Assembly (NCBI GenBank): GCA_031552145.1
Contig: JAVBMV010000003.1
Span: 211,930-275,929, forward strand
DNA length: 64,000 nt
From: Myxococcales bacterium
Lineage (GTDB): Bacteria; Myxococcota; Myxococcia; Myxococcales; UBA5297
Direction of reading: 5' to 3'
Below are positions 3,369 through 43,971 of the stretch, in pieces. The notes beneath the pieces are model-generated. The model did no database searches. It saw only the letters and a list, made by a program, of their open reading frames with translations, and had not been told where the DNA came from. Every line of letters begins with the position of its first letter. Positions within the stretch are counted from its first letter, which is position 1. The position numbers and the translations under genes are program-made.

Positions 3369-3458
3369 GTTGCCTCCGTGACCTATATGCTACACATGGC
3401 CTCTTCTCGGTGCAAGGGCGCCCCTCCCGTGAACCGGTACGTGGTGCGCCAAGCGACC

Positions 3459-8583: not shown

Positions 8584-8753
8584 TGCCGCTCTCCGGAAGG
8601 GCTCGATGACCTGCTCAACACCGATGGCATGAAAAGGTGTCACCGCCAAGTGCGCTTCCGAGCGGCCAGCCTCCCCAGCCAGCCCCAACGGTGGTAGAGC
8701 TAGCGCGGGCGCCGCGGCGCTGCGTTCCGGGACTCCACACAGAGGGACTCCAC

Positions 8754-10022: not shown

Positions 10023-10117
10023 AGAGACGGGCGGACGCCCCCTCTTCCCCCCTCCAAGTTTACCGAGGCTCTCGACGAAGCGGAGTGACGCGGAGTTGGG
10101 AAAAGGGAGCGCGTTGG

Positions 10118-10275
10118 TCTATCTTCGCGCCGCCTCAGGGCGGGGTGAAAGCCCCCACCGGCGGTGACCCACATCCATTGGGAAGCCCGCGAGCGCCGCG
10201 CTCCTCACGAGGAGGGCGCGGGACAGCAGATCTGGTGAGACTCCAGAGCCGACGGTAACAGTCCGGAAGAGAGAG
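10118..10275 (+). promoter_or_regulatory. FMN riboswitch (RFN element)
   Basis: Conserved RFN blocks are readable: CTTC...AGGGCGGGGTGAAAGCCCCCACCGGCGGT...AGCCCGCGAGCG...CAGCAGATCTGGTGAGACTCCAGAGCCGACGGTAACAGTCCGGAAGAG. It sits directly upstream of ribB (ATG 10289). Confidence 0.85.
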
Positions 10276-10288
10276 AGACAAAGGGACC

Positions 10289-10981
10289 ATGAAGACGACA
10301 GAGATCGAGTTGGTGAAGAAGCAGGTGGAGGCCGCGCTTACGTCACTGCGCGCGGGGCGCGGCGTGCTGGTCATGGATGACGAGGCACGGGAGAACGAGG
10401 GAGACCTCATCTTCGCCGCCGAGAGCATCACCACCGAGCAGATGGCGCTGCTCATCCGCACCTGCAGCGGCATCGTCTGCCTCTGCCTCACCCCCGAGAA
10501 GACCGAGCAGCTCGACCTGCCTATGATGGTAGCCAACAACACCAACCGGGGCGGCACCGGCTTCACGGTGAGTATCGAGGCCACCGTGGGCGTCACCACC
10601 GGCGTCTCGGCCGCCGACCGCGTCACCACCATCCGCGCCGCCGTCGCTCCCGACGCGCGCCCCTCCGACCTGCGCAGGCCGGGGCACATCTTCCCGCTGC
10701 GCGCGCGGGCGGGAGGCGTGCTGGAGCGGCAGGGACACACCGAGGCGACCGTCGATCTGATGCGCCTCGCCGGCCTCTCTCCCTGCGGCGTGCTCTGCGA
10801 GCTGATGAACCCCGACGGCACCATGGCGCGCCTGCCCGAGGTGGAGAGGTTCTCGCGCGAGCACCAGATTCCAATTCTCACCATCGAGGCGCTCATCGCC
10901 TATCGCAAGGCCTTCGACCTGCCGGGCGCGCAGAGCAGACCCTCCCCGCAGAGCCAGAAGCAGGTGGCGTGCGCGGGATAA
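10289..10981 (+). CDS. ribB: 3,4-dihydroxy-2-butanone-4-phosphate synthase
   Basis: [27 protein letters not shown] and [28 protein letters not shown] are hallmark RibB motifs. No GTP cyclohydrolase II domain. Confidence 0.9.
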
Positions 10982-11892
10982 AGAAGCGCGCCCGGCGTCT
11001 CACGCTGGCGCTGCTCTCCAGGAGGCGCTCGCTCTATTCAACCGGGCGCCTGCTCCAGGCCGCGCGCGAACGCTCGCTGAAGCCCATCCTGCTCGACTCT
11101 TCGCGCGTGAGCGCGGGGCTTGTCGATGGCAGGCTGACACTCTCGCAAGGCGGCGTTGCGATCCATGCGCCCGACGTGGCCATCCCGCGGATGGCGAGCT
11201 CGTCGAGCGCGAGCGGCCTCGCGCTGGCCAGGCAACTCGAGCTGATGGGGGTGCCGCTGCTCAACGGCTCCGAGGCGATCGCCCAGAGCCGCGACAAGCT
11301 CCGCTCGCTCCAGATGCTTGCCCGCGCCGGCATCCCCGTGCCCCGAAGCATCTTCGCGCCGCGCCGCACGGAGGTGGAGCCCCTCTTGGGCGAGTTGGAG
11401 GAGCGGTTCGGCGGTCTGCCCGTAATTCTGAAGCTGCTCCACGGCACGCACGGCGTGGGCGTCATGCTCGCCTCCACGCGCGAGGAGGCGCGGAGCGCCC
11501 TGGCCACGCTCTTCGAGCTGGGCGAGGAGTTGCTGGTACAAGAGTTCGTGGGGGAGGCGGAGGGGGCCGATCTGCGCGCCCTGGTGGTCGGCGAGCGCGT
11601 GGTGGCCACCATGCGCCGACGCGCGCGCGCCGGTGAGTTTCGCGCCAATCTGCACCGCGGCGGAGATGGCAGCCGCGCCACGCTCTCGGACGAAGCGGCG
11701 GCGCTCGCGGTGAAGGCTGCGCGCGCTGTCGGGCTGGAGGTCGCGGGCGTCGACCTGATCGAGTCGAAGCGCGGGCCACTCATCTTGGAGCTGAATGCCA
11801 GCCCAGGGTTGGAAGGGATAGAGCGCTCCACCGGGGTAGATGTGGCCGGCGCCATGGTCGACCGCGCGCTGGAGCTCTTGGCGCTGGGCTGA
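10969..11892 (+). CDS. rimK: RimK-family ATP-grasp alpha-L-glutamate ligase
   Basis: [58 protein letters not shown] and [26 protein letters not shown]. The GTG start overlaps the ribB end by 13 nt. Confidence 0.8.
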
Positions 11893-11977
11893 ACTACTCC
11901 CGTTTGCCATGGGGGCCGCCACCCCCTACTCTTCCCACTCGGTCCCTGACGAATCGACTGCAAACGCGAGTCCACGA

Positions 11978-12883
11978 ATGAGACACCTGCGAGTCCCCGC
12001 TCTCCTGCCCCTTTTGCTTGCCCTCGCCTCCTGTGGCGATTTCGACCTTGGAGGGCCCGGCGACGAGCCAGTGACCTTCTCGCGCGGCTACGCCTTCATC
12101 CGAGATGACGCGCTCTATGTAGCGGACCGCTCCGACTACGAGAACGCGCTGAGGCTCTCCGCCACCGGCCAGGTGAAGGAGGCGGCGCTCTCGCCCGACG
12201 GCAGGGTGATCGTCTACGTCAGCGCCACCCCCAGCGGCCTCACCAGCCTGCGCAGGATCAACCCGGATGGCGGCGCCGACAGCGAGCTGGTGCCAATCAC
12301 CAGTGGGAAAAACCTCTCCAACCCCACCCTCTCGCGAGACGCGGCGCAGATCGCTTACATCTCCACGGAGAGCGGCAAGGCGACGCTCAACCTCGTCAAC
12401 CTCAATGGCAGCGGCAATCGGCAGCTGGGGACGAGCCAGAGCGAGTTCTCCCCCACCTTCTACGCCGATGGCGCCTCTGTCCTGGTCGCGTCCGGCGGCA
12501 GCGCTCTCTCGGTGGAAGAGCTGGTTCGCGTCGACCTGGCCACCGCCCATCGGGAGACCGTCATGTCCGGGATGGAGGGAATGGACCCCAGCGTCGCGCT
12601 CTCGCCCGACGGGACGCGCGCCGCCTATGAGCGGAGCGAGGGAGGGCGACGGCGCATCTATGTGATCAATCTCACCGCCGGCGCCGGCGAGGTGGGCGAA
12701 CAGCATCTCCTCGCCAACATGAGCGGCGACATGCGCTGGCCCACCTGGATCTCCAACGCGCAGGTCGGCTACTCCGGCAGGGCCTCAAGCGGGGTCTGGT
12801 CGATCTATGAGGCCTCGGCAGAGACCGGCACCTACTCGCTGGCGGTGCCCGCCGCCCAGCAGGGCAGCTACGGCGGCAGGTAG
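11978..12883 (+). CDS. TolB-like (PD40/WD40-like beta-propeller) lipoprotein
   Basis: Start at MRHLRVPALLPLLLALASC (lipobox). Repeated LSPDGRVIVYVS, LSRDAAQIAYIS and [25 protein letters not shown] motifs. Confidence 0.7.
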   Translation: MRHLRVPALLPLLLALASCGDFDLGGPGDEPVTFSRGYAFIRDDALYVADRSDYENALRLSATGQVKEAALSPDGRVIVYVSATPSGLTSLRRINPDGGADSELVPITSGKNLSNPTLSRDAAQIAYISTESGKATLNLVNLNGSGNRQLGTSQSEFSPTFYADGASVLVASGGSALSVEELVRVDLATAHRETVMSGMEGMDPSVALSPDGTRAAYERSEGGRRRIYVINLTAGAGEVGEQHLLANMSGDMRWPTWISNAQVGYSGRASSGVWSIYEASAETGTYSLAVPAAQQGSYGGR

Positions 12884-12886
12884 CGG

Positions 12887-12944
12887 GGGCGAACTGGTAA
12901 AAAATATTGCCGATCCTGGGCGAAACTGGTAAAAAATGTCGCCG
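12887..12944. repeat. Imperfect tandem direct repeat (26/27 nt) upstream of the ATPase gene; overlaps a sigma70-like promoter
   Basis: GGGCGAACTGGTAAAAAATATTGCCG (12887-12912) and GGGCGAAACTGGTAAAAAATGTCGCCG (12918-12944). TTGCCG (12907-12912), a 17-nt spacer, then TAAAAA (12930-12935). Confidence 0.6.
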
Positions 12945-12958
12945 TTTTCAGGGTCGCC

Positions 12959-14293
12959 ATGCTCGAACGCCTAAAAGAGATCATCCTCGATCGCCAGGAA
13001 TCCGTACTTGAGCCGGGGACACCGAGGCGTCTGGAATATGCCTCGATGCCGAGGAAAGCATCTGTCTTCATCGGCGTGCGCAGGTGCGGGAAGTCCACCT
13101 TCATGGCCCAGCAGATGGAGCGTCTACTCGCCGAGGGCGCTCCTCGCCAGAGCTTCCTCTATCTCAATTTCTTCGATGACCGGCTTCACGAGCTTCGCCA
13201 GGGCAAGTTGGAGCGAATCATGGAGGCTTGGTTTGCGCTCTACCCCGAAAAGAAAGGAAGGGAGAAAACCTATTGCTTCTTCGATGAGCTCCAGATGCTT
13301 CCGGGTTGGGAGTCCTTCGTCGAACGACTGATGCGCGAAGAGAATTGCGAGGTCTTCATTACTGGCTCTTCGGCGCAGATGCTGTCGCGCGAGATCGCTA
13401 CTCAGATGAGAGGTCGCGCGCTCACCTGGGAACTCTTCCCCTTCTCCTTTCGTGAATACCTCGACTTTCACGGGGTCGACGGCGACGCTCCTCTCTCGAC
13501 GAGGAGACGTCTGCTGATACAGCGCGCCTTCGACGACTACTGGGAGCGGGGCGGTTTCCCCGAGGTTGCCGGGGTCGAACGCTCCCTTCGAATCAAGCTT
13601 CACCAGGAGTATTTCAACGCGCTCCTATTTCGAGACCTGATCGAGCGCCACGATGTCGCGCATCCCAAGGCGGTAACCGACCTCGCATACTGGCTCATCG
13701 ACAACACGGCGTCGCTCTATACGATCAACCGTCTGACAGGGTACCTGAAATCGCTGGGGCACACGGCTCCCAAGGCGACGGTTTCCAGCTATCTCGACTG
13801 GTTCGAGGATGCCTATTTCTTCTTCACGGTACGTCTCTTCGACGCTTCGCTTGCGCGCTCGCATGCGAACCCCAAGAAGATCTACTGCGTCGACCACGCG
13901 CTCATTACGTCCACGAGCTCCGGGGTCCTGGTCAACTCGGGGCATTTGCTCGAGAACCTCGTCTTCATGGCTCTGCGGCGAGTGACCTCCGAGATCTACT
14001 ATCTCCGCACCCGTAATGGCCGCGAGGTCGACTTCATAGCGCGGCTCCCAGATCGCTCGCGGCTCCTGGTTCAGGTCTGCGAGTCGCTCGTTGAGCCCGC
14101 GACCAGGAAGCGCGAAGTAACGGCGCTCGCCGAGGCAATGCAGGAGCAAGGGCTCTCGCGCGGCGTAATCGTGACGCGCCGCGAAGAGGAGCAGATCGAC
14201 CTCGCCAACGGAACCATCGAGGTGCTCCCGGCGTGGCGCTTTCTGCTGAGGCAGGCAGCCGGCAAAGGCCGGCGCCTCGCCGCGTCTCCTTAA
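12959..14293 (+). CDS. AAA_14/DUF4143-family ATPase
   Basis: 444 aa. Walker A GVRRCGKST and Walker B YCFFDELQ. The C-terminal region is typical of DUF4143 (VDFIARLPDRSRLLVQVCESL). Confidence 0.85.
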   Translation: MLERLKEIILDRQESVLEPGTPRRLEYASMPRKASVFIGVRRCGKSTFMAQQMERLLAEGAPRQSFLYLNFFDDRLHELRQGKLERIMEAWFALYPEKKGREKTYCFFDELQMLPGWESFVERLMREENCEVFITGSSAQMLSREIATQMRGRALTWELFPFSFREYLDFHGVDGDAPLSTRRRLLIQRAFDDYWERGGFPEVAGVERSLRIKLHQEYFNALLFRDLIERHDVAHPKAVTDLAYWLIDNTASLYTINRLTGYLKSLGHTAPKATVSSYLDWFEDAYFFFTVRLFDASLARSHANPKKIYCVDHALITSTSSGVLVNSGHLLENLVFMALRRVTSEIYYLRTRNGREVDFIARLPDRSRLLVQVCESLVEPATRKREVTALAEAMQEQGLSRGVIVTRREEEQIDLANGTIEVLPAWRFLLRQAAGKGRRLAASP

Positions 14294-17200
14294 GGGACCT
14301 CTTCCACCCAGATCTCGAATGGGCCTCGGGCTGAATAGTCCTTTGCGTCCGCGAAGATGTAGTAGGTCTGGTTCGGAATAGGATTCGAGACCAGGACCGA
14401 CTCGGGCCTGGAGGAACTACCTCCGTCGACTCCCGCGACGCATTGGGTGACATCGCACGCGGTCGAGACCCAGAGCGTCGCATCCCAGTAGGGATTGGGC
14501 TTGAGAGAGACCTTGAAAGGCGTCGTCGTGGTGGGCGTGTAGCGATAGACCAGCTCGGCGCCACGGCCGCGCTCATACGATTTGGTGCAGCCGCCCGCCG
14601 CGCTCTTCCCAAAGGAGTAATCGGCGTTGGCGTTCGTATTGTCGCCCGATTGCCGGGGGTTCGCGTCGAGCTGGAGGGCGATGGCCCCCTCGCACCGGTC
14701 GTTCGGTGGCGGCGCCTTCGCCGTGTCGTGATCGACGACTTTTACGTAGAGTTTATGGCTTCCCACCGCCGCCATGTCCTTGTAGTCGACGAACACGAAG
14801 TAGTTCTGATTGGCAACGAGCTTGCGTACGACCAGGGCGTTCGACCCCGTGGTGCGCCCATCGATGCAGGCCAGCTCATTCTCCTGCAAGTCGGACTCAC
14901 AGCTATTGCGCAAATAGATGAAGGGCGCCGGAGCGCCGGTGACATAGAGGCTCAGATCAAAGTCCCGGGGATAACGAAGCGAATAGGTAAAATCGGGGCC
15001 ATGGAGCGCCTCGCACAGCCCCGTGGTCGTCGTGTCGGCGTCGTATTTCGTGAAGACGCGCCCGGCCTGCTCGTTATAGTCGCCCGCGACGGGGAGCACG
15101 ATCTCCTGGAGGCCGGCGCATCCACCAGGAATTGGCACGACGACCTCTGATTCCAAGGCGAGATCGACCCAGAAGCTGCCACCGGCGGCCGCCGAGTTGC
15201 TGTCGACCCACAGGTAATAGTCGGCGCCTCCCGCCAGTTGGGGTGCTTCGATCGAGGCGGTCCTGCCGCCGGTCGGGGCATGACAGGCCAACCGATAGAC
15301 GAGGTCATGCGCTCCGCAGACCGGGCGTAGATAGAGGGCGGGAACGAAATCGGCGTCGACAATCGCTTTGAAGCCATACGGATGATCCAGATGGAAGCGA
15401 TAGACTTTCTCGGGACCGTTCGAGGCGCCACAGAGACCGGTCGTGTCGTGGCGTGCATCATCGAGCGTCCCGCTGATGGAGGCCCTCGAGTTCGTGAACG
15501 AGACGACCGCGCTCTCTGGAAAGGGCTCGACGCAGGTGTCGTTGGCGGCCAGCCGGTCTGGGGACAACGCTCGCACGTCGATTGTGAATCTCCCCGAAGC
15601 TTCGGGAGCGACCGCGTCGACGACGATGTAGACGCGCTGCTCGGAGGTCAGGTGAACGGACGCCACCGCCGACGCACCAACGGCGCTCGCCGTCGCGCAC
15701 GCCAGCTCGCTCTCGGGGTCGGTGTCACAGGACGCGCGCAGGTGGAGGGAAGGCAGATAGATACCCTCAAACGCAGTTCCCTCGGCCGTCAAGGCTACTG
15801 TGAGGGTTCTCCCGGCGGGCGCGTCGACGGCGTAGACCAGGTCGGGCCCGCCCATCGCGGCGCAGGTGCCGCTCATGTCATCTCGTCCACTCTCGATCCC
15901 GGTCGCGCTGGCGAGGCTTCCGCGGCCCAGGGCATCGAGCGCGATCACCGGAAGCTCGGGCGCATCGCAGCTATCATTCTCGGCGGGCGGCGGCGTGAGC
16001 ACCTTCGTGACGACGAGCGTGTAGGGCAGGGGCGTCGCCTCCACGGCGTAGATGTTCGTCGTATCGACGAAGAGATAATAGACGCCGGGGCCGAGCGCCA
16101 ATTCCTCTATTGTGGCGTTTCCGTTGGATCCCAGAACACAGGCGTCCGCGACGGGCGAGGCGCCCGCGCACTCCTCTCCCGAGCGTACATAGAGGGCCGG
16201 CCTATCGAATTGACTGGTCGAAGTCCAATAGAAGGTCATGCTCCCAATCACCGTGGCGCTGATCGTCGCCGGTGCGTCGAGGTCGAGCCTATAGACGTGC
16301 TCGGGGCCCACGAAACCTGTCGGAAGATTACAGTCGCCCAGCTCGTCGCTCTGCTCTCCCCAGAGAAGGCCCGAAACTACGGCAAGTCCTTTGCCATCGA
16401 AGGGGGGGAGCTCGGCTGCGTCCTCGCAGGTCTCTGGAGCCGCGTCTCGGACAAAAGAGGCGACCACGGTGAAGGGGCCGCCTGCCGTCGGCGACGAGCC
16501 GTCGACCCACAGATAATAGGTCTCCTCGAGCTCCGACGAAATGGTGGTCCGGATCGACACGGGTTGCCCGGCGCTCCCCGCCATCTCGCACGAAAGTGCC
16601 GAGGCCTGACTCCCGCAGACGGTCCTGATCTCGGGATTGAGCGCCATCCCCGACCCCGGCGAAGGGACGAGCGTCGCGATGAGCGTGCCCGGGCCCGCAA
16701 GCCGCATCTGGAACGCAGCCTCCGCGCCCGACCAATTGTTGCAGGAGTTATGCATGGTGCTCGTACGACCCGCGGTGGTGCCGTTCGCCAGGGCATACCC
16801 ACTCGAGAGATCGAGGACCGTCGCGGCCTCGCAGAGGGCCCGAACACCGGCGGGCACGGAGGTCGGCGCTGCGCTGGGAGGAGGATGCGTCGGCAGCATG
16901 CTCCCGGTCGGGACGAGGTCGATGTCGCCGTAGAATATATGGTCCTGCCTTCCATAGCCGCTGTCGAACCAGATGACATATGTCCCCGGTGGAATGTCCT
17001 CCCAGATGACCTGCGCCTTGCCACCCATGCGGCGGTCACATTTCGCGAGCGCGGGAGGCGGCTCGGAGGTGGGCACGAAGAGCGTACAGTCGGTCGCGGA
17101 GACAATCCGCTGTACGTCGATGGAGGCAGTAAAGCTGCTCCTCTCGGGATAGACATGGTTGACCGCGAGCGTCCAGCCTTCCCCGGTCGCCTCCGGCACC

Positions 17201-20200
17201 TCGATGAGGACGGCATAGTCCCTGGCCGGCTGCATCCCGCCCTCGCCGCCCGGCATCAGCTCGGGCGTTCCACACTGCCGATCATGATTCCCCTCGGCTT
17301 TCGAGGTGTCGCCCACGATGCGCGCATATCCATTCTCGTCGAGAGCGACGGGGCTCGCCGTCTCGCAGGCGTCGCCCTTGGGATGGAAGAGCTCTACCGC
17401 GAGCTGAAAGGCGTCGCCATAGGGACCGACGCTGTCGATGATGACGAAATAGTCTCCTCCAGCAGCGCGCTCTATCTCCACATCACCGGAGGGAGAGCAG
17501 ACGGTCTCGGATGCAGGCGCGTCACACTCCCTCCGCAGGTAGATGATCGGGGCGTAAAGCGGCATCGCGCCTTCGGCGGGCGCGACCTTCGCGCGGAGTC
17601 CAAAGGAGGAGGGTTCGGGAATAGAGATTCGGTAGATTGCCTCCGGACCGCCGGGATTGCCCGGGGCGCAGCTCGCCGTGGGCTGTTGCCGATCGACGCC
17701 CCAGGACGTCGTGCCCTGGAAGGTGACCGAGGGATTCTGGGGGGAGAGCTCGGTCGCGGAGAGCGCCTCTCCACATTCGAGCGGAGTGTCGTCCTGCGGT
17801 GCCGGCGTCAGCTCCAGGTCGAGCATGTATTCACCGGCGAGGGGTCTAACGGAGTCCACCCACAGATAGTAGACGCCGTGGGGGAGCATGACGTCGAGGG
17901 CCGTCGGCCCACCCTGATTGGCCGAGGAGGCAACGAGCTCGTTCGACACGTCGGCCAAGACGCAGCTGGGGCCACGCAGATAGAGCACCGCGCTTCCCGT
18001 GGCCTGGGCGAAGGTGAGTCGCGCCTTCAGATGCGCTACCTGGAGCGAGACGGGGATCTCATAGACCACGTCCGGACCATCGCCGAGCGACAGCCTCGCC
18101 GAGCCACCATTGTTTGTCGCGAGCGATGTATTACCGAGGAGCGTCTTGGCCTGAACGAGCTCCAGATCGCTGACCGGCTCGGCCGTATTACAGGCATCGG
18201 CGATGGGAACCTCCGCCGGGACGGTGGAGAGTTCGAGCGCATAGTCACCATAGGTCGAAGTCCCTGTCGCCGACTCGATTCCATCGACGATGACATAGAA
18301 GGTGTCCCCCGGGTTCGCGTAGGCCGAGACGATGGCGAAGGTCCCCGTCGCCGCGTTGGCGCAGGCGATCTCGTCCCCCGGATCCGCGCCGAGGCACCCC
18401 CCCGCGCGGCGCAGATAGAGCGCCGGCAGATAATCGGGCGAGTTCACGCTCTTGTGTAGGCGCGCGGTGAAGATGGCAGCATCGGGGACTTCAATCCAAT
18501 AGACGAGATCGGCGCCGGTGTGCGGGGTGGCGGCGCTAGAACAGGTACCCACATAGTCGTTCCGGGCGTCCGCGGTCGATTGCTCCCGTAGTACCAGCGT
18601 CGACGGTGCGGCGCCGAGGAGCCTCCCTCCGGCGAGAGCTGCTCCTTCACAGGTGTCTTCGAGCGGCGGCGTGCCGCGCTTCACCGCTTCGACTCGAAGC
18701 GTAAAAGGACCCTCTGTCTGGTAGCCGGACGAATCGACGAAGGCAAAGAGCTCTTCTCCTCCCTCGACATTTCGCACCTGGAAGGTGACTGCCCTCCCCT
18801 GCTCGGCCGTATAACAGGCGCGATCGCTTGGCGCGTCGCACGCATCGCGGACATAGACAGCCGGCGCGAGCAGGGGATTCTCCGCCTCAGGCATCAGCGT
18901 GAAGGCGTAGTGGCGTGCGTCGGGCAGACTGAGCCGATAGACGAGATCGCCGCCCGCCGTGGTCGGCTTGCAGCGAGCGACGCTGTCATCGACTCCTTGA
19001 AAGGTATCACCGCGAATCGTCGCGACGCGCACGGCGTCATCGAGCGCTCCGTCGAAATGGACCCATTCGGCCGCGGGATCACATCGATCATGGGTTTCAT
19101 CGACATTCGATTCGGAGATCGAGAGCCAAACCTCGAAGGGGCCGTCCGCGCCTTCGACGCCGCTATCGACCAACAGGAAATAGCTCCTCCCGGCGCCGAG
19201 CTTGTATGCGGTGGCACTCAGATCGCCATCCACCGCCCTTGCGCACGCCCGTTCGTTCCCCTCGGAGTATGGCTGACATGAACCCCGCACGCTCGCCAGG
19301 GCCACATGCGCCGAGCCGGGGAGCCGAGGTATGTCGATGGCAACATCTCGAAACCCCTCCCCTTCCGGCAGGTCGAGCCGCCAATAGAGTTCGCGACCCG
19401 TATCGCCATCGGCGCAGCTGCTGGTCTCCGTATTCGAGCTCGCCGACGTATTGCCTCTCAATACCATCGTGGAGGAGTCGGAGAGCACGATCGGCGCTGC
19501 GGTGCCACAGCTCGTATTGACGGGAATGGGGTGCAGATAGAGATGCAGATCAAACTCGCCCTCGGTGCCCTGAGCGCCATCGATCACCAGCGTATAGTCG
19601 CCTGGCACCGAGAGCGCGTGTTGGAGGCGAACCATCTCCGTCGGCGACGCTGCATGTTCGCATCGATCGCCGACGAGGTGCGCGCCATCACATCCTCCCT
19701 CATATACATAGACCACGGGAATGAACCCGCGCGAGTGTTCTTTTGCCACAACTGCGATACTGGCGTAAACGGGCTCGTCCGTGTGGATGCGGTAATAAAC
19801 ATCCGCGCCCCGCGCGTCGCAGACCGAGGGGGCGCGCTCGTGACCCGCGTCGAGCGTCTTCCCCTCGACATGGAGGTAGCGCGTCTCGGGGTCGACGACC
19901 AGCTGATAGGGAAGGCTCGCGCTGCCGGGCTCCTCGATCGCGTCGCAGAGATCGTTATAGGGGGCCTCTCCGCGAGCGGGTATCTCGATAGTCAATTCGA
20001 AGGGGCCGGCGCGATCGCCGAAAGTATCGACGATAAGATAATAGGTGCTGCGCGGTGCGAGCCCAAAGGCGTCGATCGTGAGAGGCAGCGCGACGTGGGG
20101 CGCATGATCGCAGCTTCCCGAGAGTTCGGTGCCCGCGTCGGCGCAGGACGAGCGCAGATAGATAGCACCCTGGTAGGTCGAGTCGACCGGCGTGGCGGTC

Positions 20201-21975
20201 ACATGGAGATTTCGCGTCGGGCCCGAGGGCAAAGAGATGGCGTAGACGAGATCGCCGCCATCGTTCAACAAGTGGCAGCTTCCCGTCAGATTGTTTGAGG
20301 CAACCCGCGTATCTCCGCCGACCTGCTGAACCGTCGACACGGTGAAATCGAGCGGGACGTGGGCATCCAGACACGAGTCGTTGGTGACGACGGGCAGGAG
20401 CTCGATCGAGAGGGTGAAGTCGGCGGGCGCAAGGGCACCGACGCGCAGCGTGTACCTCGTGCCGCCGGTGAGCAGACCCTTCCCGAGCCACGCCGCGCCT
20501 TCCGTTCCTTCGGCGCACGCATATTCGCCGCCGTCACAATCGGTCAGCAAGGTCAAGAAGGGGGCCACCCGCTCATCGGCTGTCTTCACCGTAATGGCGG
20601 CAGCGGTGTCGGCCGCGGGAGTCAGCGTGTAATAGATGTCCGGACCCACGAACCTACAGGCGCTTGCAGGGAGATCGGGCGTCGCGGAGAAGAGAGTTCC
20701 GCTCTCGTCGATCGATCCATGCAGCGCCAGTGGCACGGCGTCGGCACAGTGATCATTGGCGTGGCGCTCGGCGGTGGGCCTGAGCGTGACGCGGAGGTCG
20801 CTCACGCCGCACCTGGAGGCCTGCCACGCGTCGGCCCAAAGATAGACGACCGCTCCCTCTCCTCCGCCTACCTGCGGCGCCGTGAGCTCGTAGGGAGTGT
20901 TGTCCCCCTGGCCGTTGGAACATACGAGCTCGGAGTCCGCGGCGTCGCAGATGTTTCTCAGATAGGTCTCTTGACGGACGAGGCTGCCCCACACCGGGGT
21001 CACCGAAACAGAGAGCTCGCCCATTTCGGGTAGATGAACCCGATATACGACATCTCCCCCGGAATAGTGGGCACAGGAGCTCTGTGCCGATCCGGTTGCG
21101 CGACAATTATTGGTCCGGACCGTCGCGACGAAGAGGCGCTCGCTACCGAGCCCCTCTTCGATCAAGAAGAGATCCTCCGCCGACGCGCACTCGTCATTCG
21201 ATGGGACGGCGCGCGGATCGGAACAGACGTTGTTGATGCAGAGCTCGGACTCGGGACACGGCTCGTGCCCCGTCACCGCCCCGCAGTCCTCGATTCGAAC
21301 CACCTCGCCGCAGCGATTTCGCGCATGGTAGGTTCCGCAGTTCTTGCCGGCGTCCGTACAGAGTTCCTCGATGGTCTCGGGGACACAGTCGCATTGGTTG
21401 GTGGCGGGATTGCATCGCTCGACCTCTGCTTCGCAGGGATCTCCGCAGTCGTAGTCTCGCGATTCATCGCAGCGGTCCGCGAGCGTCCCTTGACCACACA
21501 CCGCGCCATAGAGCACGCCCGCGAGCGCGCAGAGCGCCTCTTCGGGCTCCCCTTCGCAAAGGCACGCTCCGGCTTCGCTGCAACTCTCGTATTCTTTGCA
21601 ATGGTTCTCACAGAGACCTTCATGGTATTGGCCGCAAGGATCGGTTCCCTCGATAGACCCGCACACTCTGCCTACATGATCACAGTACTCCTGGTCCGAC
21701 ATGGGACACTCACGAGGAATGCAGCGATACTGCTCGCATTTCTCGGCTTCGGAGTCGCACGGGCCGCACTCCCCGCCACAGCCATCATCCCCGCATTCTC
21801 GCCCTTCGCATTGCCGAACACAGGCGTCGGCATCTGGCTCCACGGCATCGGGTCCACCCACGTCTCGATCGGGAGAGGGCACATCGGGCAGCTCATCTAC
21901 GACGATGTCTCGCGTGCCACAGGTCGCCGCCACGCAGAGAGAGAAGACCACGATCATCATCTTTCGTTGCCACAT
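14290..21975 (-). CDS. Giant secreted cysteine-rich protein with 16 tandem PPC-like domains (2561 aa)
   Basis: Uninterrupted ORF. RBS AAGGAGG 4 nt before the ATG. N-terminal hydrophobic signal MMIVVFSLCVAATCG. Clear domain periodicity (see the repeat feature). Confidence 0.9.
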   Translation of the reverse strand: MWQRKMMIVVFSLCVAATCGTRDIVVDELPDVPSPDRDVGGPDAVEPDADACVRQCEGRECGDDGCGGECGPCDSEAEKCEQYRCIPRECPMSDQEYCDHVGRVCGSIEGTDPCGQYHEGLCENHCKEYESCSEAGACLCEGEPEEALCALAGVLYGAVCGQGTLADRCDESRDYDCGDPCEAEVERCNPATNQCDCVPETIEELCTDAGKNCGTYHARNRCGEVVRIEDCGAVTGHEPCPESELCINNVCSDPRAVPSNDECASAEDLFLIEEGLGSERLFVATVRTNNCRATGSAQSSCAHYSGGDVVYRVHLPEMGELSVSVTPVWGSLVRQETYLRNICDAADSELVCSNGQGDNTPYELTAPQVGGGEGAVVYLWADAWQASRCGVSDLRVTLRPTAERHANDHCADAVPLALHGSIDESGTLFSATPDLPASACRFVGPDIYYTLTPAADTAAAITVKTADERVAPFLTLLTDCDGGEYACAEGTEGAAWLGKGLLTGGTRYTLRVGALAPADFTLSIELLPVVTNDSCLDAHVPLDFTVSTVQQVGGDTRVASNNLTGSCHLLNDGGDLVYAISLPSGPTRNLHVTATPVDSTYQGAIYLRSSCADAGTELSGSCDHAPHVALPLTIDAFGLAPRSTYYLIVDTFGDRAGPFELTIEIPARGEAPYNDLCDAIEEPGSASLPYQLVVDPETRYLHVEGKTLDAGHERAPSVCDARGADVYYRIHTDEPVYASIAVVAKEHSRGFIPVVYVYEGGCDGAHLVGDRCEHAASPTEMVRLQHALSVPGDYTLVIDGAQGTEGEFDLHLYLHPIPVNTSCGTAAPIVLSDSSTMVLRGNTSASSNTETSSCADGDTGRELYWRLDLPEGEGFRDVAIDIPRLPGSAHVALASVRGSCQPYSEGNERACARAVDGDLSATAYKLGAGRSYFLLVDSGVEGADGPFEVWLSISESNVDETHDRCDPAAEWVHFDGALDDAVRVATIRGDTFQGVDDSVARCKPTTAGGDLVYRLSLPDARHYAFTLMPEAENPLLAPAVYVRDACDAPSDRACYTAEQGRAVTFQVRNVEGGEELFAFVDSSGYQTEGPFTLRVEAVKRGTPPLEDTCEGAALAGGRLLGAAPSTLVLREQSTADARNDYVGTCSSAATPHTGADLVYWIEVPDAAIFTARLHKSVNSPDYLPALYLRRAGGCLGADPGDEIACANAATGTFAIVSAYANPGDTFYVIVDGIESATGTSTYGDYALELSTVPAEVPIADACNTAEPVSDLELVQAKTLLGNTSLATNNGGSARLSLGDGPDVVYEIPVSLQVAHLKARLTFAQATGSAVLYLRGPSCVLADVSNELVASSANQGGPTALDVMLPHGVYYLWVDSVRPLAGEYMLDLELTPAPQDDTPLECGEALSATELSPQNPSVTFQGTTSWGVDRQQPTASCAPGNPGGPEAIYRISIPEPSSFGLRAKVAPAEGAMPLYAPIIYLRRECDAPASETVCSPSGDVEIERAAGGDYFVIIDSVGPYGDAFQLAVELFHPKGDACETASPVALDENGYARIVGDTSKAEGNHDRQCGTPELMPGGEGGMQPARDYAVLIEVPEATGEGWTLAVNHVYPERSSFTASIDVQRIVSATDCTLFVPTSEPPPALAKCDRRMGGKAQVIWEDIPPGTYVIWFDSGYGRQDHIFYGDIDLVPTGSMLPTHPPPSAAPTSVPAGVRALCEAATVLDLSSGYALANGTTAGRTSTMHNSCNNWSGAEAAFQMRLAGPGTLIATLVPSPGSGMALNPEIRTVCGSQASALSCEMAGSAGQPVSIRTTISSELEETYYLWVDGSSPTAGGPFTVVASFVRDAAPETCEDAAELPPFDGKGLAVVSGLLWGEQSDELGDCNLPTGFVGPEHVYRLDLDAPATISATVIGSMTFYWTSTSQFDRPALYVRSGEECAGASPVADACVLGSNGNATIEELALGPGVYYLFVDTTNIYAVEATPLPYTLVVTKVLTPPPAENDSCDAPELPVIALDALGRGSLASATGIESGRDDMSGTCAAMGGPDLVYAVDAPAGRTLTVALTAEGTAFEGIYLPSLHLRASCDTDPESELACATASAVGASAVASVHLTSEQRVYIVVDAVAPEASGRFTIDVRALSPDRLAANDTCVEPFPESAVVSFTNSRASISGTLDDARHDTTGLCGASNGPEKVYRFHLDHPYGFKAIVDADFVPALYLRPVCGAHDLVYRLACHAPTGGRTASIEAPQLAGGADYYLWVDSNSAAAGGSFWVDLALESEVVVPIPGGCAGLQEIVLPVAGDYNEQAGRVFTKYDADTTTTGLCEALHGPDFTYSLRYPRDFDLSLYVTGAPAPFIYLRNSCESDLQENELACIDGRTTGSNALVVRKLVANQNYFVFVDYKDMAAVGSHKLYVKVVDHDTAKAPPPNDRCEGAIALQLDANPRQSGDNTNANADYSFGKSAAGGCTKSYERGRGAELVYRYTPTTTTPFKVSLKPNPYWDATLWVSTACDVTQCVAGVDGGSSSRPESVLVSNPIPNQTYYIFADAKDYSARGPFEIWVEEVP
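14293..21198 (-). repeat. 16 tandem ~144-aa protein domains (N-D-x-C ... G-x-D-L-V-Y ... L-Y-L-R-x-x-C ... Y-Y-L-x-V-D ... G-P-F-x-L)
   Basis: Hand alignment. Central strands include GGDVVYRVHLP, GPDIYYTLTP, GGDLVYAISLP, GADVYYRIHT, GRELYWRLDLP, GGDLVYRLSLP, GADLVYWIEVP, GPDVVYEIPV, GPEAIYRISIP, ARDYAVLIEVP, GAEAAFQMRL, GPEHVYRLDL, GPDLVYAVDAP, GPEKVYRFHL, GPDFTYSLRYP, GAELVYRYTP. Confidence 0.75.
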
Positions 21976-22005
21976 GACTCCTCCTTTTCGAACGACGGAC
22001 TTCGA

Positions 22006-23214
22006 CTACGGGGGCGCTGGATCATCGGGGAGACAGTCGCGTTCGAGTCGCGCCGCTTCACCAGCAATGGCGGAATCGGACGAAGCACCCAGCCGCGCCA
22101 ACAGCTCGCGCGCGGCGTAGATCTGCCCCTCTCGGCAGAGCAACCCCGCCCGGATCAAGGCGACGCGCGGTGTCCTGGGGTCGCCCGGATACTTTCCTTC
22201 GAAGCGCGAGGCCGCCTCGATTGCTTCAGCGTGCCGTCCCAGCTTGATCAAGATTTCGAGCCGCTTCGACGCGGCCTCGGGCGCGAGCGCTCCCTCGGGG
22301 AAACGTCGCTCGAAGAGCTCGAAGGTTTCGAGCGCGCGCCCTTGTCCCTTGGGCGACGCCTGCATCAGCAGGCCCATCGTATAGAGGGCGTTCTGGCTGG
22401 AGAGATCGTCGCCAGCGGCACGGGCTCCAAGGCAGTCGAGTGCTTCCTCACGGTCGGCCTGCTCTTCGCATCTGGGCGGCCGTGGGGCGGAGGGAAGGGA
22501 GCGCTCCGGGAGCCGTCGTGCGCTCCTCTTTGCCTGCGCCTCAGGGCGTTCCAGCGACAGATTCTGGGCGCGGGAGGGCACACCGAGCGGGGCCGCAAGG
22601 CGCGGGTCGTCTGAGCGAATGGACTCATTCGGCGCAAGAACCGCAGCGCCTCCGTCACCTTCGACGCGCACGCTGCCTTCGATGAGTCCGACCCGAGTCG
22701 AGGGCGCGGCGACCTCGATCTCCAGCCGCGTCCCCAGGACCACCACACGAAGATGGGGCGTGATCAGCACCACCGGGCGATCCTTGGCCTGGCGCAGAAT
22801 GGCGGCGCGGTACCGTCCGGGACCGAGCTCTATCTGCCGCTCTTCCGGCCGGTCTCTCAGCACGACCTCCGAACCGGGAGAGCTCTCGAACGTGCCGATT
22901 TCGGGGATCTCTATCCCGTTCCATTGTGTGGACACGGCGAAGCGGGGAGCGTCATTGGTGGGCAGGGACGCGTCCCGCCGAGACAGGAGGGCGATGGCGA
23001 GCACCGCCACGACGACCACCGCGCCCGCCAGGGCGGCGATCCATCGATGTGATTTGAGGCCGTCAGGCGCGGAAAGTGACTCTCGAACCCGCCACCAAAC
23101 CGCCGCGTGTTGGGCGCGATCGCTCTCGAGATGACGCCGCGCTTCGCGCACCCAGCGCCCCAGCTCGCGCTCTTCGCCCTCATCATGTCGAGAGAGTCTT
23201 CTCGGCTCATTCAT
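22006..23214 (-). CDS. FecR-like transmembrane anti-sigma factor with TPR-like C-terminus
   Basis: 402 aa. Cytoplasmic N-terminus and one TM (WIAALAGAVVVVAVLAIALL). FecR-type LRVVVLGTRLEIEV...VGLIEGSVRVEG. ATGA overlap with the sigma stop (23211-23214). Confidence 0.8.
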   Translation of the reverse strand: MNEPRRLSRHDEGEERELGRWVREARRHLESDRAQHAAVWWRVRESLSAPDGLKSHRWIAALAGAVVVVAVLAIALLSRRDASLPTNDAPRFAVSTQWNGIEIPEIGTFESSPGSEVVLRDRPEERQIELGPGRYRAAILRQAKDRPVVLITPHLRVVVLGTRLEIEVAAPSTRVGLIEGSVRVEGDGGAAVLAPNESIRSDDPRLAAPLGVPSRAQNLSLERPEAQAKRSARRLPERSLPSAPRPPRCEEQADREEALDCLGARAAGDDLSSQNALYTMGLLMQASPKGQGRALETFELFERRFPEGALAPEAASKRLEILIKLGRHAEAIEAASRFEGKYPGDPRTPRVALIRAGLLCREGQIYAARELLARLGASSDSAIAGEAARLERDCLPDDPAPP

Positions 23215-23750
23215 GATGCACTCGCCCCTCTCTTCGCCTTCAGCAGCTCGTGGCGCGCCGAACAGAGGCGCGAATAGACGGTCTTCACCGGGACGTTCAG
23301 GAGCTCCGCGATCTCGACACAGCTCAGCTCTTGGATCTCAAACAGAATGAACACGACCCTCTTCTTCTCGGGCAACGCTTCGAGGAGGTGGTAGAGCGCC
23401 CGCGTCGACTCTTCCTCGATGAGCTCCTTCTCGGCGGACGCCTCGACGGAGGGCGCACCCCAGAATCCAGTCCGACGCACGAGCTGCCGGAGGTGACGTG
23501 TGCGTCGCCGGTTCGCCGCCAGTCCCAGCGCGACGCGCGTCAGCCACGACCGTGGCAGCTCCAGCTCGAGCGATGAGCGCTTCCGATGGGCGATCAGGAA
23601 GACGTCGTGCGTCAGGTCCTCGGCGTCGACCGCGGAGCCAAGGACGCGCATCAGCAATGTCTGCACATAGGGACCGTGCTCCTCGTAGAGGCGCTCGAGA
23701 TCGAGCGCCTTGGCGAGAACGGGATCCGCTTTCATGGAGAGCGCGCGCAC
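23211..23750 (-). CDS. ECF-type RNA polymerase sigma factor
   Basis: 179 aa. Region 2 (LYEEHGPYVQTLLMRVLGSAVDAEDLTHDVFLIAH) and region 4 (LSCVEIAELLNVPVKTVYSRL). GTG start with AAGGGTG upstream; an alternative ATG lies at 23735. Confidence 0.9.
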   Translation of the reverse strand: MRALSMKADPVLAKALDLERLYEEHGPYVQTLLMRVLGSAVDAEDLTHDVFLIAHRKRSSLELELPRSWLTRVALGLAANRRRTRHLRQLVRRTGFWGAPSVEASAEKELIEEESTRALYHLLEALPEKKRVVFILFEIQELSCVEIAELLNVPVKTVYSRLCSARHELLKAKRGASAS

Positions 23751-23804
23751 TGAGTCACCCTTGCGGTCTGCGAAGCATTCGCCCTCTACAGAGTTCCGAG
23801 CACT

Positions 23805-24725
23805 TCAGATCCCCCATTCCCAGCGCCAATCGAAGCCCGTCGTGAGCGCGGCGACGGCCCACCCCATCTCGGCCGCGCCCCCTGCCAGCTCCGAGTGGAG
23901 TCGAAGCGCATAAGGGTGCGCGAGGAGGTCGACCTGGGTCGACCAAGCGAGCGCCTCAGAGAGCGCGAGGCGGAGCCGGACCGCCGCCATCAGCCCCATG
24001 AGAGCGATCGACCGCTCTCCTCTCGCTTCCCCTCCGAGGGAGGTCGCCGAGACGAGGCTCAACGCAGGACCTCCCATGGCGAAGAGTTCCAGCCCCGACT
24101 CGAGCTCGATCCTCACTCCCGCCGAGGCCCCGAGAGCGAGCCGCCTCAGCTCGAGCTGCCCTCGAAGCCCTCGGGTCCTCCAGGACGCTTCGTGCCGCGC
24201 GAAGAGTCCCGCTCGCCAGAGAGGCGTCACCTCGATCTCGGCGCCGATGAAGCCCGACATGGCGGGGCGCTGGAGATGCCGATCGAAAGCGGCGCCCATG
24301 AGCAGGAGGAGATCGATACGGGCGGGGTGCTGCGCGCGAGAAGGCTCTGTCGTGGGAGCAGCCGCGGCGGCGACCGGCCCGCGCTGGGATACCCGCGACG
24401 CATTCTTGAGCCACTCGTCGTTCAGCCAGCTCTCGATCAACAGGACCACGGTCTCGGCGAGGCTGGCACAATCGGACGAGGCGACCTGGAGCGTCCTCGC
24501 CTGCGTCATCGTCGGACCGCGGAGCTCGACGCGGAGCGCCTCCTCGCCCGCGCCCCGGACGACGAGCGACCAATCTGGATGAGCCCGCAGAGGGTCTTCG
24601 ACGCGCAGGGCAAAGGCGCCAGGGTCGCCGCAGGGGAGCGATCCAACGTCGATCCTCGAGCCGGCGGAAGCGCTCGGCGCGCTCGCGACGGTGAGCCCCA
24701 CCAAGAGAAACAGAGAGACCGTCAT
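23805..24725 (-). CDS. Hypothetical secreted beta-strand-rich protein (possible outer-membrane protein)
   Basis: Start chosen at MTVSLFLLVGLTVASAPSASA (signal peptide); the maximal ORF runs to 24797. The C-terminal half has alternating hydrophobic strands ending ...TTGFDWRWEWGI. No motif recognised. Confidence 0.55.
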   Translation of the reverse strand: MTVSLFLLVGLTVASAPSASAGSRIDVGSLPCGDPGAFALRVEDPLRAHPDWSLVVRGAGEEALRVELRGPTMTQARTLQVASSDCASLAETVVLLIESWLNDEWLKNASRVSQRGPVAAAAAPTTEPSRAQHPARIDLLLLMGAAFDRHLQRPAMSGFIGAEIEVTPLWRAGLFARHEASWRTRGLRGQLELRRLALGASAGVRIELESGLELFAMGGPALSLVSATSLGGEARGERSIALMGLMAAVRLRLALSEALAWSTQVDLLAHPYALRLHSELAGGAAEMGWAVAALTTGFDWRWEWGI

Positions 24726-24956
24726 GGCTCGCAAATCTGTCGTGGACCCGGCCCGGATCGTTCCCTCGTCGCTCGGCGGAGGCGAGCGTGGAGACATCGA
24801 CAGAGTGAGCGTGAAGGGCAGCGCCCCTTCCTGTCAAGGTGGAGCTCCGCAGGACGAACCCAAAAACTGCGAGAGGGCCGGCTCGCGCCGACCCTCTCGA
24901 GACTGCGATCTGCCAATCGAGGCGCGCAGCAAGCGGCGCCCCAACAGCGCTACGTC

Positions 24957-26195
24957 CTAAAAGCCGTGCAGTACCAGCCCGCTGCGCAGCTTGGGCTCGA
25001 ACCAGGTGCTCTTCGGCGGCATGATCTGGCCGGCGTCGGCGATGCTCATGAGCTGGTCGATCTGCGTGGGGAACATGGCGAAGGCCACCTTGGCCTGGCC
25101 AGCGTCGACGCGCTTCTCCAGCTCCTGCATGCCGCGGATGCCGCCCGAGAAGTCGATGCGCTTGTCGGTGCGCGGATCCTTGATGCCGAGGACGGGGCCG
25201 AGCAGGTTCTCCTGCAGAATGGAGACGTCGAGGTTCTTCACGGGATCCTTCTCGTCGAAGGTGCCCGCCTTGGCGGTGAGCATGTACCAGGCGCCCTCGA
25301 GGTACATACCGAAATCGTGCAGCTTCGAGGGGCTCTTCTGCGAGGAGGGCACCATGGTGAACTTGGCGCCGATCTCCGCCTTGAACTGCTCGACCGTGCG
25401 GCCGTTGAGATCTTTCACGAGCCGGTTGTAGTCCATGATCTGCATCTGGTTGTGCGGGAAGATCACGGCGAGGAAGTAGTCATGCTCGGCGTCGCCCGTG
25501 GGCTTCTTGCCAGCGCGCGCGGCGCGCGCCTCGGAGGTGCGGGCGGCGGCGGCGGAGCGGTGGTGGCCGTCGGCGATATAGGTCGCGGGGAGCTTCGCGA
25601 ACTCGCGCACCAGCGCGGCGATGTCGGCGTCGCCCGAGACGACCCAGAAGGTGTGGCGAATGCCGTCGTCGGTCTCGAAGTCATACTCGGGCTTCGCGGC
25701 GATGAGGCGGTTGACGATGTCGTCGATCTCCTTGCGCGCCGGATAGGTGAGGAAGACGGGCTCGTCATTGCCGTTGAGGCGATCGATGTGCTGGGTGCGA
25801 TCGTCCTCTTTGTCGGCGCGCGTCAGCTCGTGCTTCTTGATGGTGCCCTTGCGGTACTCCTCGCAGCTGGCGGCGGCGACGAGGCCCACCTGTTCGTGCT
25901 TCCCCATCTTCTGCTTGTAGAGATAGAGGCAGGGCTTGGCGTCGGCCTTCAGGTGCCCCTCTTTGACGAAGAGCTGCAGGTTGGTCAGGCCCAGGTCATA
26001 GACCTCGGGGGCGTGGGCGTCGGTGCCGGGGGGCAGGTCGATCTCGGGGCGGCTGATGCGGAAGAAGGAGAGCGGATTCCCCTTACCGTAGGCGCGCGCC
26101 TCCTCGCTGTCGACCACGTCATAGGGCGGGCACGCGACCTTGAGGACCTTCTCCTGGGGCGGGCGAAGTCCCGCGAATGGGCGAATGACTGACAT
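24957..26195 (-). CDS. DUF1015 family protein
   Basis: 412 aa. MSVIRPFAGLRPPQEKVLKVACPPYDVVDSEEA is the family N-terminus as I recall it. RBS GGAGAAAG. Confidence 0.85.
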   Translation of the reverse strand: MSVIRPFAGLRPPQEKVLKVACPPYDVVDSEEARAYGKGNPLSFFRISRPEIDLPPGTDAHAPEVYDLGLTNLQLFVKEGHLKADAKPCLYLYKQKMGKHEQVGLVAAASCEEYRKGTIKKHELTRADKEDDRTQHIDRLNGNDEPVFLTYPARKEIDDIVNRLIAAKPEYDFETDDGIRHTFWVVSGDADIAALVREFAKLPATYIADGHHRSAAAARTSEARAARAGKKPTGDAEHDYFLAVIFPHNQMQIMDYNRLVKDLNGRTVEQFKAEIGAKFTMVPSSQKSPSKLHDFGMYLEGAWYMLTAKAGTFDEKDPVKNLDVSILQENLLGPVLGIKDPRTDKRIDFSGGIRGMQELEKRVDAGQAKVAFAMFPTQIDQLMSIADAGQIMPPKSTWFEPKLRSGLVLHGF

Positions 26196-36603: not shown

Positions 36604-36787
36604 GTCATTCCCTTCGCGGTCTATCCGCGCCGTGGTGCTATCGCCCAGCGCCGCGGCGCCGTCAACCTTTGCGACATGTAGTCGCGAGTGATCTTCACTC
36701 TGACCAAACGGATTGACTGCTCTCGAGGTCCGCGTTCCCATTGCCCACAGAGAGTGGCGAGCTCGGGCGCCAGAGACGTCCTCGCTA

Positions 36788-42609: not shown

Positions 42610-43971
<1,362 letters not shown>

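Follow-up and report, generated by a model that had tools for sequence, protein, structure and literature searches.

Signalling through FecR-type anti-sigma factors, as it occurs in the FecI/FecR/FecA and PupI/PupR/PupB systems, is understood almost entirely via TonB-dependent transducers. A locus of a different composition is described here from a 64,000-nucleotide stretch of a Myxococcales bacterium genome (GenBank assembly GCA_031552145.1, contig JAVBMV010000003.1, positions 211,930 to 275,929; hereafter the window), in which an extracytoplasmic function (ECF) sigma factor and an anti-sigma factor of the FecR-like kind are encoded next to a giant repeat protein. The closest catalogued group of sigma factors, by description only, appears to be ECF267. 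In the main text of the ECF classification 2.0, this group is described as having an anti-sigma factor that is FecR-like and bears tetratricopeptide repeats (TPR) and a sigma factor far from the FecI clade, and as being restricted to the 'Proteobacteria' as then defined, with the Myxococcales included (Casas-Pastor 2021, PMC7826278). A conserved Ser/Thr kinase is present in the ECF267 neighbourhood and kinase-linked control was proposed for such groups, with the regulation of the FecR-plus-TPR group explicitly left unresolved (PMC7826278).

The locus is a cassette of four genes, which encode a small protein (gene 1), the ECF sigma factor (gene 2), the anti-sigma factor (gene 3) and the giant (gene 4). 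On balance, and with modest confidence, it is proposed that the FecR/TPR anti-sigma factor and the gene 1 protein together sense a signal and that the giant is co-transcribed with them as the regulated output. The anti-sigma factor would hold the sigma factor at the inner membrane, and its periplasmic FecR and TPR regions would read a signal relayed by, or consisting of, the gene 1 protein, whose tethered periplasmic N-terminal domain would substitute for the signalling domain that a TonB-dependent transducer has. Once released, the sigma factor would raise transcription of the cassette itself, including the giant.

Organisation of the locus

Four minus-strand open reading frames (ORFs) are present between positions 24899 and 14290, with a coding-type G+C content at third codon positions of 0.75-0.81 (Table 1). 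Public gene calls for the corresponding Logan contig concur, giving products of 306, 174, 402 and 2561 amino acids (aa). The initial annotation of this DNA had described the last three of these genes as a tight chain and this holds: the sigma gene stop and the anti-sigma gene start share four nucleotides (ATGA, 23211-23214), the anti-sigma gene stop is 30 nt from the ATG of the giant gene, and the AAGGAGG ribosome-binding site is in place within that gap. Gene 1 is separated from the sigma gene by 54 nt.

The intrinsic terminator upstream of gene 1 has a 13 bp stem with 10 G-C pairs and a loop of 4, and is followed by CAGTTTTTGG. No terminator-like sites were found between the four genes. Since there is a terminator only upstream of gene 1, the unit starts with gene 1 rather than at the sigma gene. 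The four genes are probably transcribed together, with a promoter a short way downstream of this terminator.

As had been noted before, there is no TonB-dependent transducer in the window. No Pfam match to Plug or TonB_dep_Rec was found among the window ORFs with a coding signature, and the stretches of the window left untranslated are each shorter than 1.3 kb. This absence had been taken as a peculiarity of the locus. It is better seen as a family trait, because anti-sigma factors with FecR and TPR regions are already catalogued as ECF267, as that group is described in the main text of the classification.

Table 1. Features of the four-gene cassette, its candidate regulatory sequences and the related loci.
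Feature	Position	Strand	Details
Gene 1	23805-24725 (24797 from first ATG)	-	306 aa
Gene 2, ECF sigma factor	23211-23750	-	179 aa from GTG; 174 aa from ATG at 23735 (public-contig call)
Gene 3, single-pass anti-sigma factor	22006-23214	-	402 aa
Gene 4, giant	14290-21975	-	2561 aa
Signal peptide of giant	21919-21975	-	residues 1-19, ending VAATC, probable lipoprotein cysteine
Cysteine-rich region of giant	21214-21828	-	residues ~50-254; motif CEGRECGDDGCGGxCGxC, common to most paralogs
16 tandem beta-sandwich repeats of giant (by modelled fold)	14293-21213	-	residues 255-2561; tenth repeat degenerate
AAGGAGG ribosome-binding site of giant gene	21980-21986	-	4 nt before ATG, in 30-nt gap after anti-sigma stop
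Intrinsic terminator	24870-24899	-	closes upstream DUF1015 gene; 5' boundary of four-gene unit
Candidate ECF-type promoter, GGAAC-N17-CGAC	24739-24764	-	ends 14 nt before gene 1 ATG
GGAAC element	23793-23797	-	in 54-nt gap before sigma gene
TGAAGCTT-N11-GCGACAC/GGCAC sites	L027: 2988, 6247	+	
	L029: 7172	-	
	L029: 782	+	
	L013: 6033		
	L022: 3333		
Locus L032			anti-sigma P0011; sigma, anti-sigma, giant (2574 aa), second giant
Locus L034			anti-sigma P0013; gene 1 homologue, sigma, anti-sigma, giant (2712 aa)
Locus L035			anti-sigma P0014; gene 1 homologue, sigma, anti-sigma, giant (2545 aa)
Locus L005			anti-sigma P0026; anti-sigma, 20-nt gap, giant P0006
Locus L004			anti-sigma P0012; gene 1 homologue, sigma, anti-sigma; convergent with giant P0004

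The sigma factor and the anti-sigma factor

The product of gene 2 is assigned to the ECF (group 4) sigma-70 factors, as it has only the sigma-2 and sigma-4 regions and passes the superfamily threshold. In Pfam it matches Sigma70_r2 (43.7 bits) and r4_2 (50.5 bits), with no r3 and no r1, and it scores 72.3 against a cutoff of 42.9 for TIGR02937. Its scores fall far short of the cutoffs of all the specific families, FecI among them (50.6 against 260 for NF041727, ECF_sigma_FecI; 53.1 against 185 for PRK09651).

The anti-sigma factor is made up of a cytoplasmic part (residues 1-58), a transmembrane segment that is its single hydrophobic segment (residues ~59-78), a FecR domain (residues 115-183), a linker with the conserved cysteines C249 and C261, and a TPR region (residues ~268-376). 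This agrees with the architecture initially annotated, which comprised a FecR-type motif, one transmembrane segment and a TPR-like C-terminus. The FecR match (PF04773) is marginal in this protein, at 25.3 bits against a cutoff of 24, and stronger in its paralogs, at 32.7-33.7 bits. The motif LRVVVLGTRLEIEV...VGLIEGSVRV falls inside this domain. The TPR-like C-terminus is matched by TPR_16 and by the NCBIfam YbgF and BamD models, at about 1e-4.

A profile of 30 members of the anti-sigma family was run against solved structures. It matched the periplasmic domain of PupR (6ovk_R, 5.5e-10, profile positions 96-218), in an alignment that covers the FecR-domain part only and ends at residue 149 of the 219 in the chain, and the Bacteroides FecR-domain structure 4m0n (2.8e-5). 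Further along, it matched BamD (1e-9, positions 271-343) and also CpoB (region 271-349). Neither FecR_C/STN nor DUF4880 was found in the anti-sigma factor in Pfam at E<=0.1, where only FecR and TPR_16 were returned. Given that there is no FecR_C/STN match and that the C-terminus matches TPRs, the module that would contact a transducer appears to have been replaced by a TPR: judged from the domain matches, a cysteine linker and a BamD/CpoB-like TPR stand where the receptor-binding STN subdomain would be. The module can thus be called non-canonical, as had been suggested, in having no transducer, no FecR_C/STN or DUF4880 and a sigma factor so far short of the FecI cutoff.

Related loci

In a library of 1.8 billion proteins, 134 representatives of the anti-sigma family were found at E<1e-10. 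The relatives of the giant are a handful, with 25-34% identity, and come mostly from runs SRR23967709 and SRR23967707 and one NCBI assembly, together with one Myxococcales metagenome-assembled genome (MAG) and one JGI metagenome. The close cassettes are all from one sample, represented by the same two runs.

Four of the five nearest anti-sigma relatives have usable context (P0011, P0012, P0013 and P0014); the fifth, P0010, is on a 1.8-kb contig. A giant paralog adjoins the anti-sigma gene in all four, and also in P0026. The pair is co-directional with the giant gene in L032, L034, L035 and L005, where gaps of 20-56 nt precede the giants, most of them with similar purine-rich sites, and convergent with it in L004. 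Linkage of the sigma/anti-sigma pair to a giant gene is conserved among these close relatives. Synteny of the three genes had been put forward as a check on the locus, and the nearest pairs were indeed found with a giant paralog, not without it and not beside a TonB-dependent receptor.

At least six copies of the cassette are present in the same sample, probably in one genome, and several of them appear to lie together on contigs of 406,567 bp, 252,549 bp and 143,484 bp. The cassette would thus have been duplicated and diversified. The presence of so many diverged copies, probably in one genome, argues that each sigma/anti-sigma pair would control its own giant.

A scan of genome collections for related loci returned no confirmed relative, and word-based homologue searches with gene 1 or the anti-sigma factor as the query each returned the query alone. 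Distant members were then fetched with a degenerate DNA pattern for P[HQ][LV]xV[VTI]V[VLI]GT[RHK]F and screened with local hidden Markov models (HMMs). In these, the gene after the anti-sigma gene encodes a DUF5122 beta-propeller in L027 and L029 and a DUF7305 protein in L019, with nothing clear in L014 and L021. The giant had been described as the cargo of the operon, and in the close relatives, where it is adjacent, it can be seen as such; it is not a fixed partner, as the distant members instead have genes for different beta-rich secreted proteins, of the DUF5122 or DUF7305 kind.

It is gene 1 that is the most conserved partner of the pair. It had been treated as incidental to the operon, but a gene 1 homologue is linked to the sigma gene in 11 of the 12 loci with enough upstream DNA. 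The homologue is linked to the sigma gene in L004, L013, L014, L015, L021, L027, L029, L034 and L035, and in L032 with a single gene between the two; L019 is the one locus of the 12 without it. The intervening gene in L032 is on the opposite strand, between the gene 1 homologue (3284-4336) and the sigma gene, and encodes a Lamin-tail-domain (LTD) protein.

The other loci scanned likewise showed no TonB-dependent receptor beside their sigma/anti-sigma pairs. The single trace is in L027, where a 191-aa ORF (8531-9106, plus strand), some 3.6 kb downstream of the gene for the anti-sigma factor, has a sub-threshold match to the C-terminal part of the TonB_dep_Rec barrel (23.6 against 27 bits); this ORF may represent either a fragment of a gene or a small barrel protein.

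The gene 1 protein

The gene 1 protein has a signal peptide, an N-terminal domain of ~85 aa, a Pro/Ala-rich linker of variable length and a C-terminal domain of ~170 aa. It has no Pfam or NCBIfam family match. The N-terminal domain contains two invariant cysteines (C32 and C86) and a conserved helix, DCxxLxxTxALLxxSWL. In a single-sequence AlphaFold2 (AF2) model this domain has a predicted local distance difference test (pLDDT) score of 70-86 and a b-a-b-b-b-a topology. The C-terminal domain consists of period-2 amphipathic strands, with a beta moment of 1.15 against an alpha moment of 0.48 and 88% of sequence windows favouring beta, and it terminates in WRWEWGI. Aromatic-rich tails resembling the beta-signal are present in several members of the family (FTANFF, RVKIW and WRWEWGI). 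From these features it is inferred that gene 1 may encode a small outer-membrane beta-barrel with a tethered periplasmic N-terminal domain, and that its product would be the likelier outer-membrane component of the unit.

The idea that gene 1 encodes a translocon dedicated to the giant was considered and rejected. The C-terminal domain, at ~170 aa, is too small for this, and loci with a different downstream gene still retain gene 1.

The giant protein

In the giant, an acidic stretch and a cysteine-rich region precede the repeats. The cysteine-rich region has no Pfam or NCBIfam match. The repeats number 16, as found by iterative HMM searching (residues 262-2544), are ~115-130 aa in length and each have four conserved cysteine positions. 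This bears out the repeat protein of the initial annotation, although not its description as simply secreted, since the N-terminus is of the lipoprotein type and not a secretion signal alone. The lipobox of the window giant, VAATC, is atypical in having T at -1. Nine giant paralogs have lipobox-like N-termini, among them LLSAC, FSAGC, LVTAC, LLAGC, FTASC, FLSAC, LLASC and VFASC. Because a lipobox-type cysteine ends this N-terminal segment in the giant and in nine paralogs, the giant is probably a lipoprotein.

In Pfam, the repeats match GBD_T9SS_assoc (45.3 bits against 27) and are just under the cutoff for PPC (23.6 against 25.9). An AF2 model of repeat 1, made with the other repeats as the alignment, has a pLDDT of 90.8. 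Its nearest folds in Foldseek are the Bacillus collagenase PPC domain 5sv5 (7e-5), the ColG s3b collagen-binding domain (3e-4) and CBM35 (6.5e-4), with CBM6 modules also near; these matches have a probability of 1.00 at sequence identities of 10-19%. On the evidence of this model, the repeats are beta-sandwiches of the PPC/galactose-binding-like type, and the giant would be a binding or adhesin-type protein exposed on the cell surface.

Two of the related loci have further genes of note beside their giants. L032 has tandem giant paralogs on the plus strand after one sigma/anti-sigma pair, at 8225-15949 (2574 aa) and 16113-18169+ (at least 2404 aa). In L005, directly after giant P0006, there is a 316-aa cysteine-rich lipoprotein gene (8761-9711, plus strand; lipobox LAAAC) and the cysteine pattern of its product resembles the N-terminal cysteine-rich region of the giants.

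Candidate promoter sequences

Both of the short non-coding stretches in the upstream part of the cassette contain GGAAC (24764-24760 and 23797-23793), for which the joint chance is about 1%. The first of these belongs to a candidate ECF-type promoter before gene 1. GGAAC occurs about once per 760 nt on the minus strand of the window, so this candidate is suggestive only. The second is in the gap before the sigma gene, and no -10 partner was identified for it. The heptamer GGAACTC is common to this gap and to the equivalent gap of the paralogous locus L004. There is no GGAAC within 570 nt upstream of the giant gene start, and read-through into the giant gene is therefore favoured. No sigma-70 consensus promoter was found in 13800-25300.

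In the distant members a different sequence is found. Just after the gene 1 stop and before the sigma gene, the motif TGAAGCTT-N11-(G)CGACAC/GGCAC is present in L013, L022, L027 and L029. In L027 and L029 a further copy stands 20-35 nt upstream of the ribosome-binding site of another neighbouring gene, whose beta-rich product is a Cadherin-like/beta-helix protein, probably exported, in L027 and a DUF5122 protein with a lipobox in L029. The 8-mer TGAAGCTT was found 9 times in ~300 kb, against ~2.5 expected, and six of these occurrences share the extended motif. It is likely that this motif is the target promoter of the distant ECF family members, to judge from where it recurs, and its arrangement is as one would expect if an ECF sigma factor were autoregulated and had a small local regulon.

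Alternative explanations

Several observations weigh against the proposal that the cassette senses through gene 1 and drives its own giant. No convincing -35/-10 pair is shared among the six close cassettes, the spacing to the -10 candidates being inconsistent. As the close cassettes are from one sample, their conservation represents paralogy in one lineage, not orthology across species. The giants P0003, which has a histidine-kinase-like neighbour, P0007, and P0008, which has a divergent Ser/Thr kinase, are without an adjacent ECF pair; with at least three such paralogs, a giant can therefore be controlled in other ways. The convergent giant in L004 means that co-transcription is not universal. 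As for gene 1 being a barrel, the single-sequence AF2 model of its C-terminal domain has a pLDDT below 50, OMP_b-brl is matched at best at E=0.081 and in one of five family members, and the family profile returned only noise against PDB sequences. An STN- or POTRA-like identity for its N-terminal domain is not supported, since a PDB fold search gave only insignificant HPF/YfiA-like matches (best E=0.011).

It is possible, though improbable, that the locus is a sensor of envelope or outer-membrane biogenesis, with the BamD-like TPR monitoring the gene 1 barrel, or the assembly of outer-membrane proteins and lipoproteins in general, and with the giant as a passenger whose export is the load being watched. 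RseA and DegS monitor unfolded porins in an analogous way. Such a role would fit the TPR region of the anti-sigma factor, which is closest to BamD and CpoB/YbgF, the beta-signal-like aromatic tails of many gene 1 proteins and the conservation of the triad even where the downstream gene changes. However, the likeness of the TPR to BamD is generic (~1e-9 over ~75 residues), one would not expect to find a general stress sensor next to a large secreted protein that differs in every case, and the occurrence of at least six diverged copies within a single sample, probably in one genome, fits specific sensing. Multilayer control of the ECF267 type is likewise unlikely. Here the sigma factor would be governed mainly in trans by a Ser/Thr kinase, and the FecR/TPR protein and gene 1 would serve, for example, as a scaffold for anchoring or exporting the giant. 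Ser/Thr kinase homologues are indeed present just upstream of the gene 1 homologue in L021 (4950-6953, minus strand) and L029 (8292-9515, minus strand), and the divergent kinase of P0008 also speaks for a link. Yet no Pkinase match was found among the coding-signature ORFs of the 64-kb window, nor a kinase beside L032, L034 or L035, the likeness to ECF267 is by description only, and the ATGA overlap between the genes for the sigma factor and the FecR protein is classically what marks such a pair as cognate.

The giant might also be an independently expressed adhesin or binding lipoprotein that is adjacent by chance, with the pair regulating unlinked genes. Those giant paralogs that have no ECF pair nearby, and the one pair that is convergent with its giant, are consistent with this. 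Synteny makes it unlikely, and little credence is given to it here: all six of the close pairs examined adjoin a giant, five of them co-directionally across such short gaps and with no terminator, and the motif upstream of the sigma gene in the distant members recurs before neighbouring genes, those for the lipoprotein in L029 and the beta-rich Cadherin-like protein in L027. The proposal of a sensing cassette with the giant as its co-transcribed output is the best supported of these readings. A more far-reaching form of it, which must be regarded as doubtful, would make the cassette a new class of trans-envelope signalling device, in which a small outer-membrane barrel with a disulfide-bonded, tethered periplasmic domain replaces the TonB-dependent transducer and communicates with the FecR-domain anti-sigma factor by way of the BamD-like TPR. 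Each device would control its own giant in cis, and amplification of the cassette to at least six orthogonal copies per genome would provide a predatory or matrix-degrading myxobacterium with a set of giant binding proteins that are switched individually.

This locus and those related to it contribute a candidate outer-membrane partner conserved alongside the pair, a replacement of STN by TPR and a clear output gene. They offer a concrete handle on an ECF group, ECF267 by description, whose regulation is left unresolved in the main text of the classification (PMC7826278). Were the proposal true, an ECF switch would be wired to an outer-membrane protein that is not a transporter, and the regulation of families of giant multi-domain lipoproteins in the Myxococcota, one by one, would be explained. 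Use of the sigma/anti-sigma pairs as orthogonal regulatory parts is also conceivable.

Other features of the window

The neighbours of the cassette are housekeeping or unrelated genes (DUF1015, DHDPS, M20 peptidase, FTCD and an AAA_14/DUF4143 ATPase). The last of these (12959-14293, plus strand) has a weak Mrr_cat/NA-iREase1 nuclease-like C-terminus and is convergent with the giant gene, the two stop codons overlapping by 4 nt.

A second giant ORF, of 1870 aa, is present at 31129-36741 on the minus strand. It has many Kelch/beta-propeller repeats and also cysteine-rich segments resembling Disintegrin and Dictyostelium repeats. In locus L008, from the Myxococcales MAG, there is also a Kelch protein in the vicinity of the giant paralog P0008, and a seryl-tRNA synthetase is found in both regions (42610-43926 in the window), which looks like loose synteny.

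Elsewhere in the window there are an 811-aa protein with a caspase (Peptidase_C14) domain (4941-7376, minus strand), a 572-aa RCC1-repeat (beta-propeller) protein (61106-62824, minus strand) and a cytochrome c maturation cluster (CcmB, CcmE and CcmF; 45184-49367, plus strand) unrelated to the cassette. Among the related loci, the giant P0007 (L006, 6001-12159, 2052 aa) has a gene for a 234-aa sigma-70 factor 173 nt upstream (5124-5828, plus strand). This sigma factor has regions 1.2, 2 and 4, and so is non-ECF, and it has no anti-sigma gene.

Comparison with known systems

The repeat unit of the giant has, by its modelled fold, the same fold as the PPC domain, the collagen-binding domain of clostridial collagenases and the CBM6/CBM35 modules. 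The giant differs from proteins with these domains in having 16 tandem copies without a catalytic domain, and four cysteine positions per repeat.

In the polysaccharide-utilisation loci of the Bacteroidota there are many paralogous pairs of sigma and FecR-type anti-sigma factors, each beside its own surface lipoprotein or glycan-binding outputs, along with SusC-like TonB-dependent transducers, SusD and glycoside hydrolases. The paralogous pairs and the CBM-like repeats of the cassette are alike in this respect, as a functional analogy only. There is no SusC-like transducer, SusD or glycoside hydrolase here.

With ECF267, as described in the main text of the classification, the locus shares the FecR-plus-TPR anti-sigma factor and a sigma factor that is not of the FecI type. 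The kinase neighbour of that group is present at the relatives L021 and L029 and was not found in the window or at L032, L034 and L035. The same main text makes no mention of an outer-membrane-like gene, a giant lipoprotein output or multi-copy cassettes (PMC7826278). A literature search found no paper on the gene 1 family, the giant output or the multi-copy arrangement.

It is with the FecI/FecR/FecA and PupI/PupR/PupB systems that the comparison is most instructive. In these, likewise, an ECF sigma factor and a single-pass anti-sigma factor are translationally coupled, there is a periplasmic FecR domain, as seen in the match to PupR, and the cluster includes an outer-membrane partner, to which the outer-membrane-like gene 1 protein would correspond, with a flexible linker carrying a small domain at the N-terminus. 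The cassette would work like such a cell-surface signalling system, yet it lacks three features of FecIRA: the transducer, the STN subdomain and a sigma factor of the FecI clade. Where a TonB-dependent transducer is bound by the STN/FecR_C subdomain in Fec and Pup, the cassette has a BamD-like TPR and no transducer, and its output would be a giant binding-domain lipoprotein rather than a transporter.

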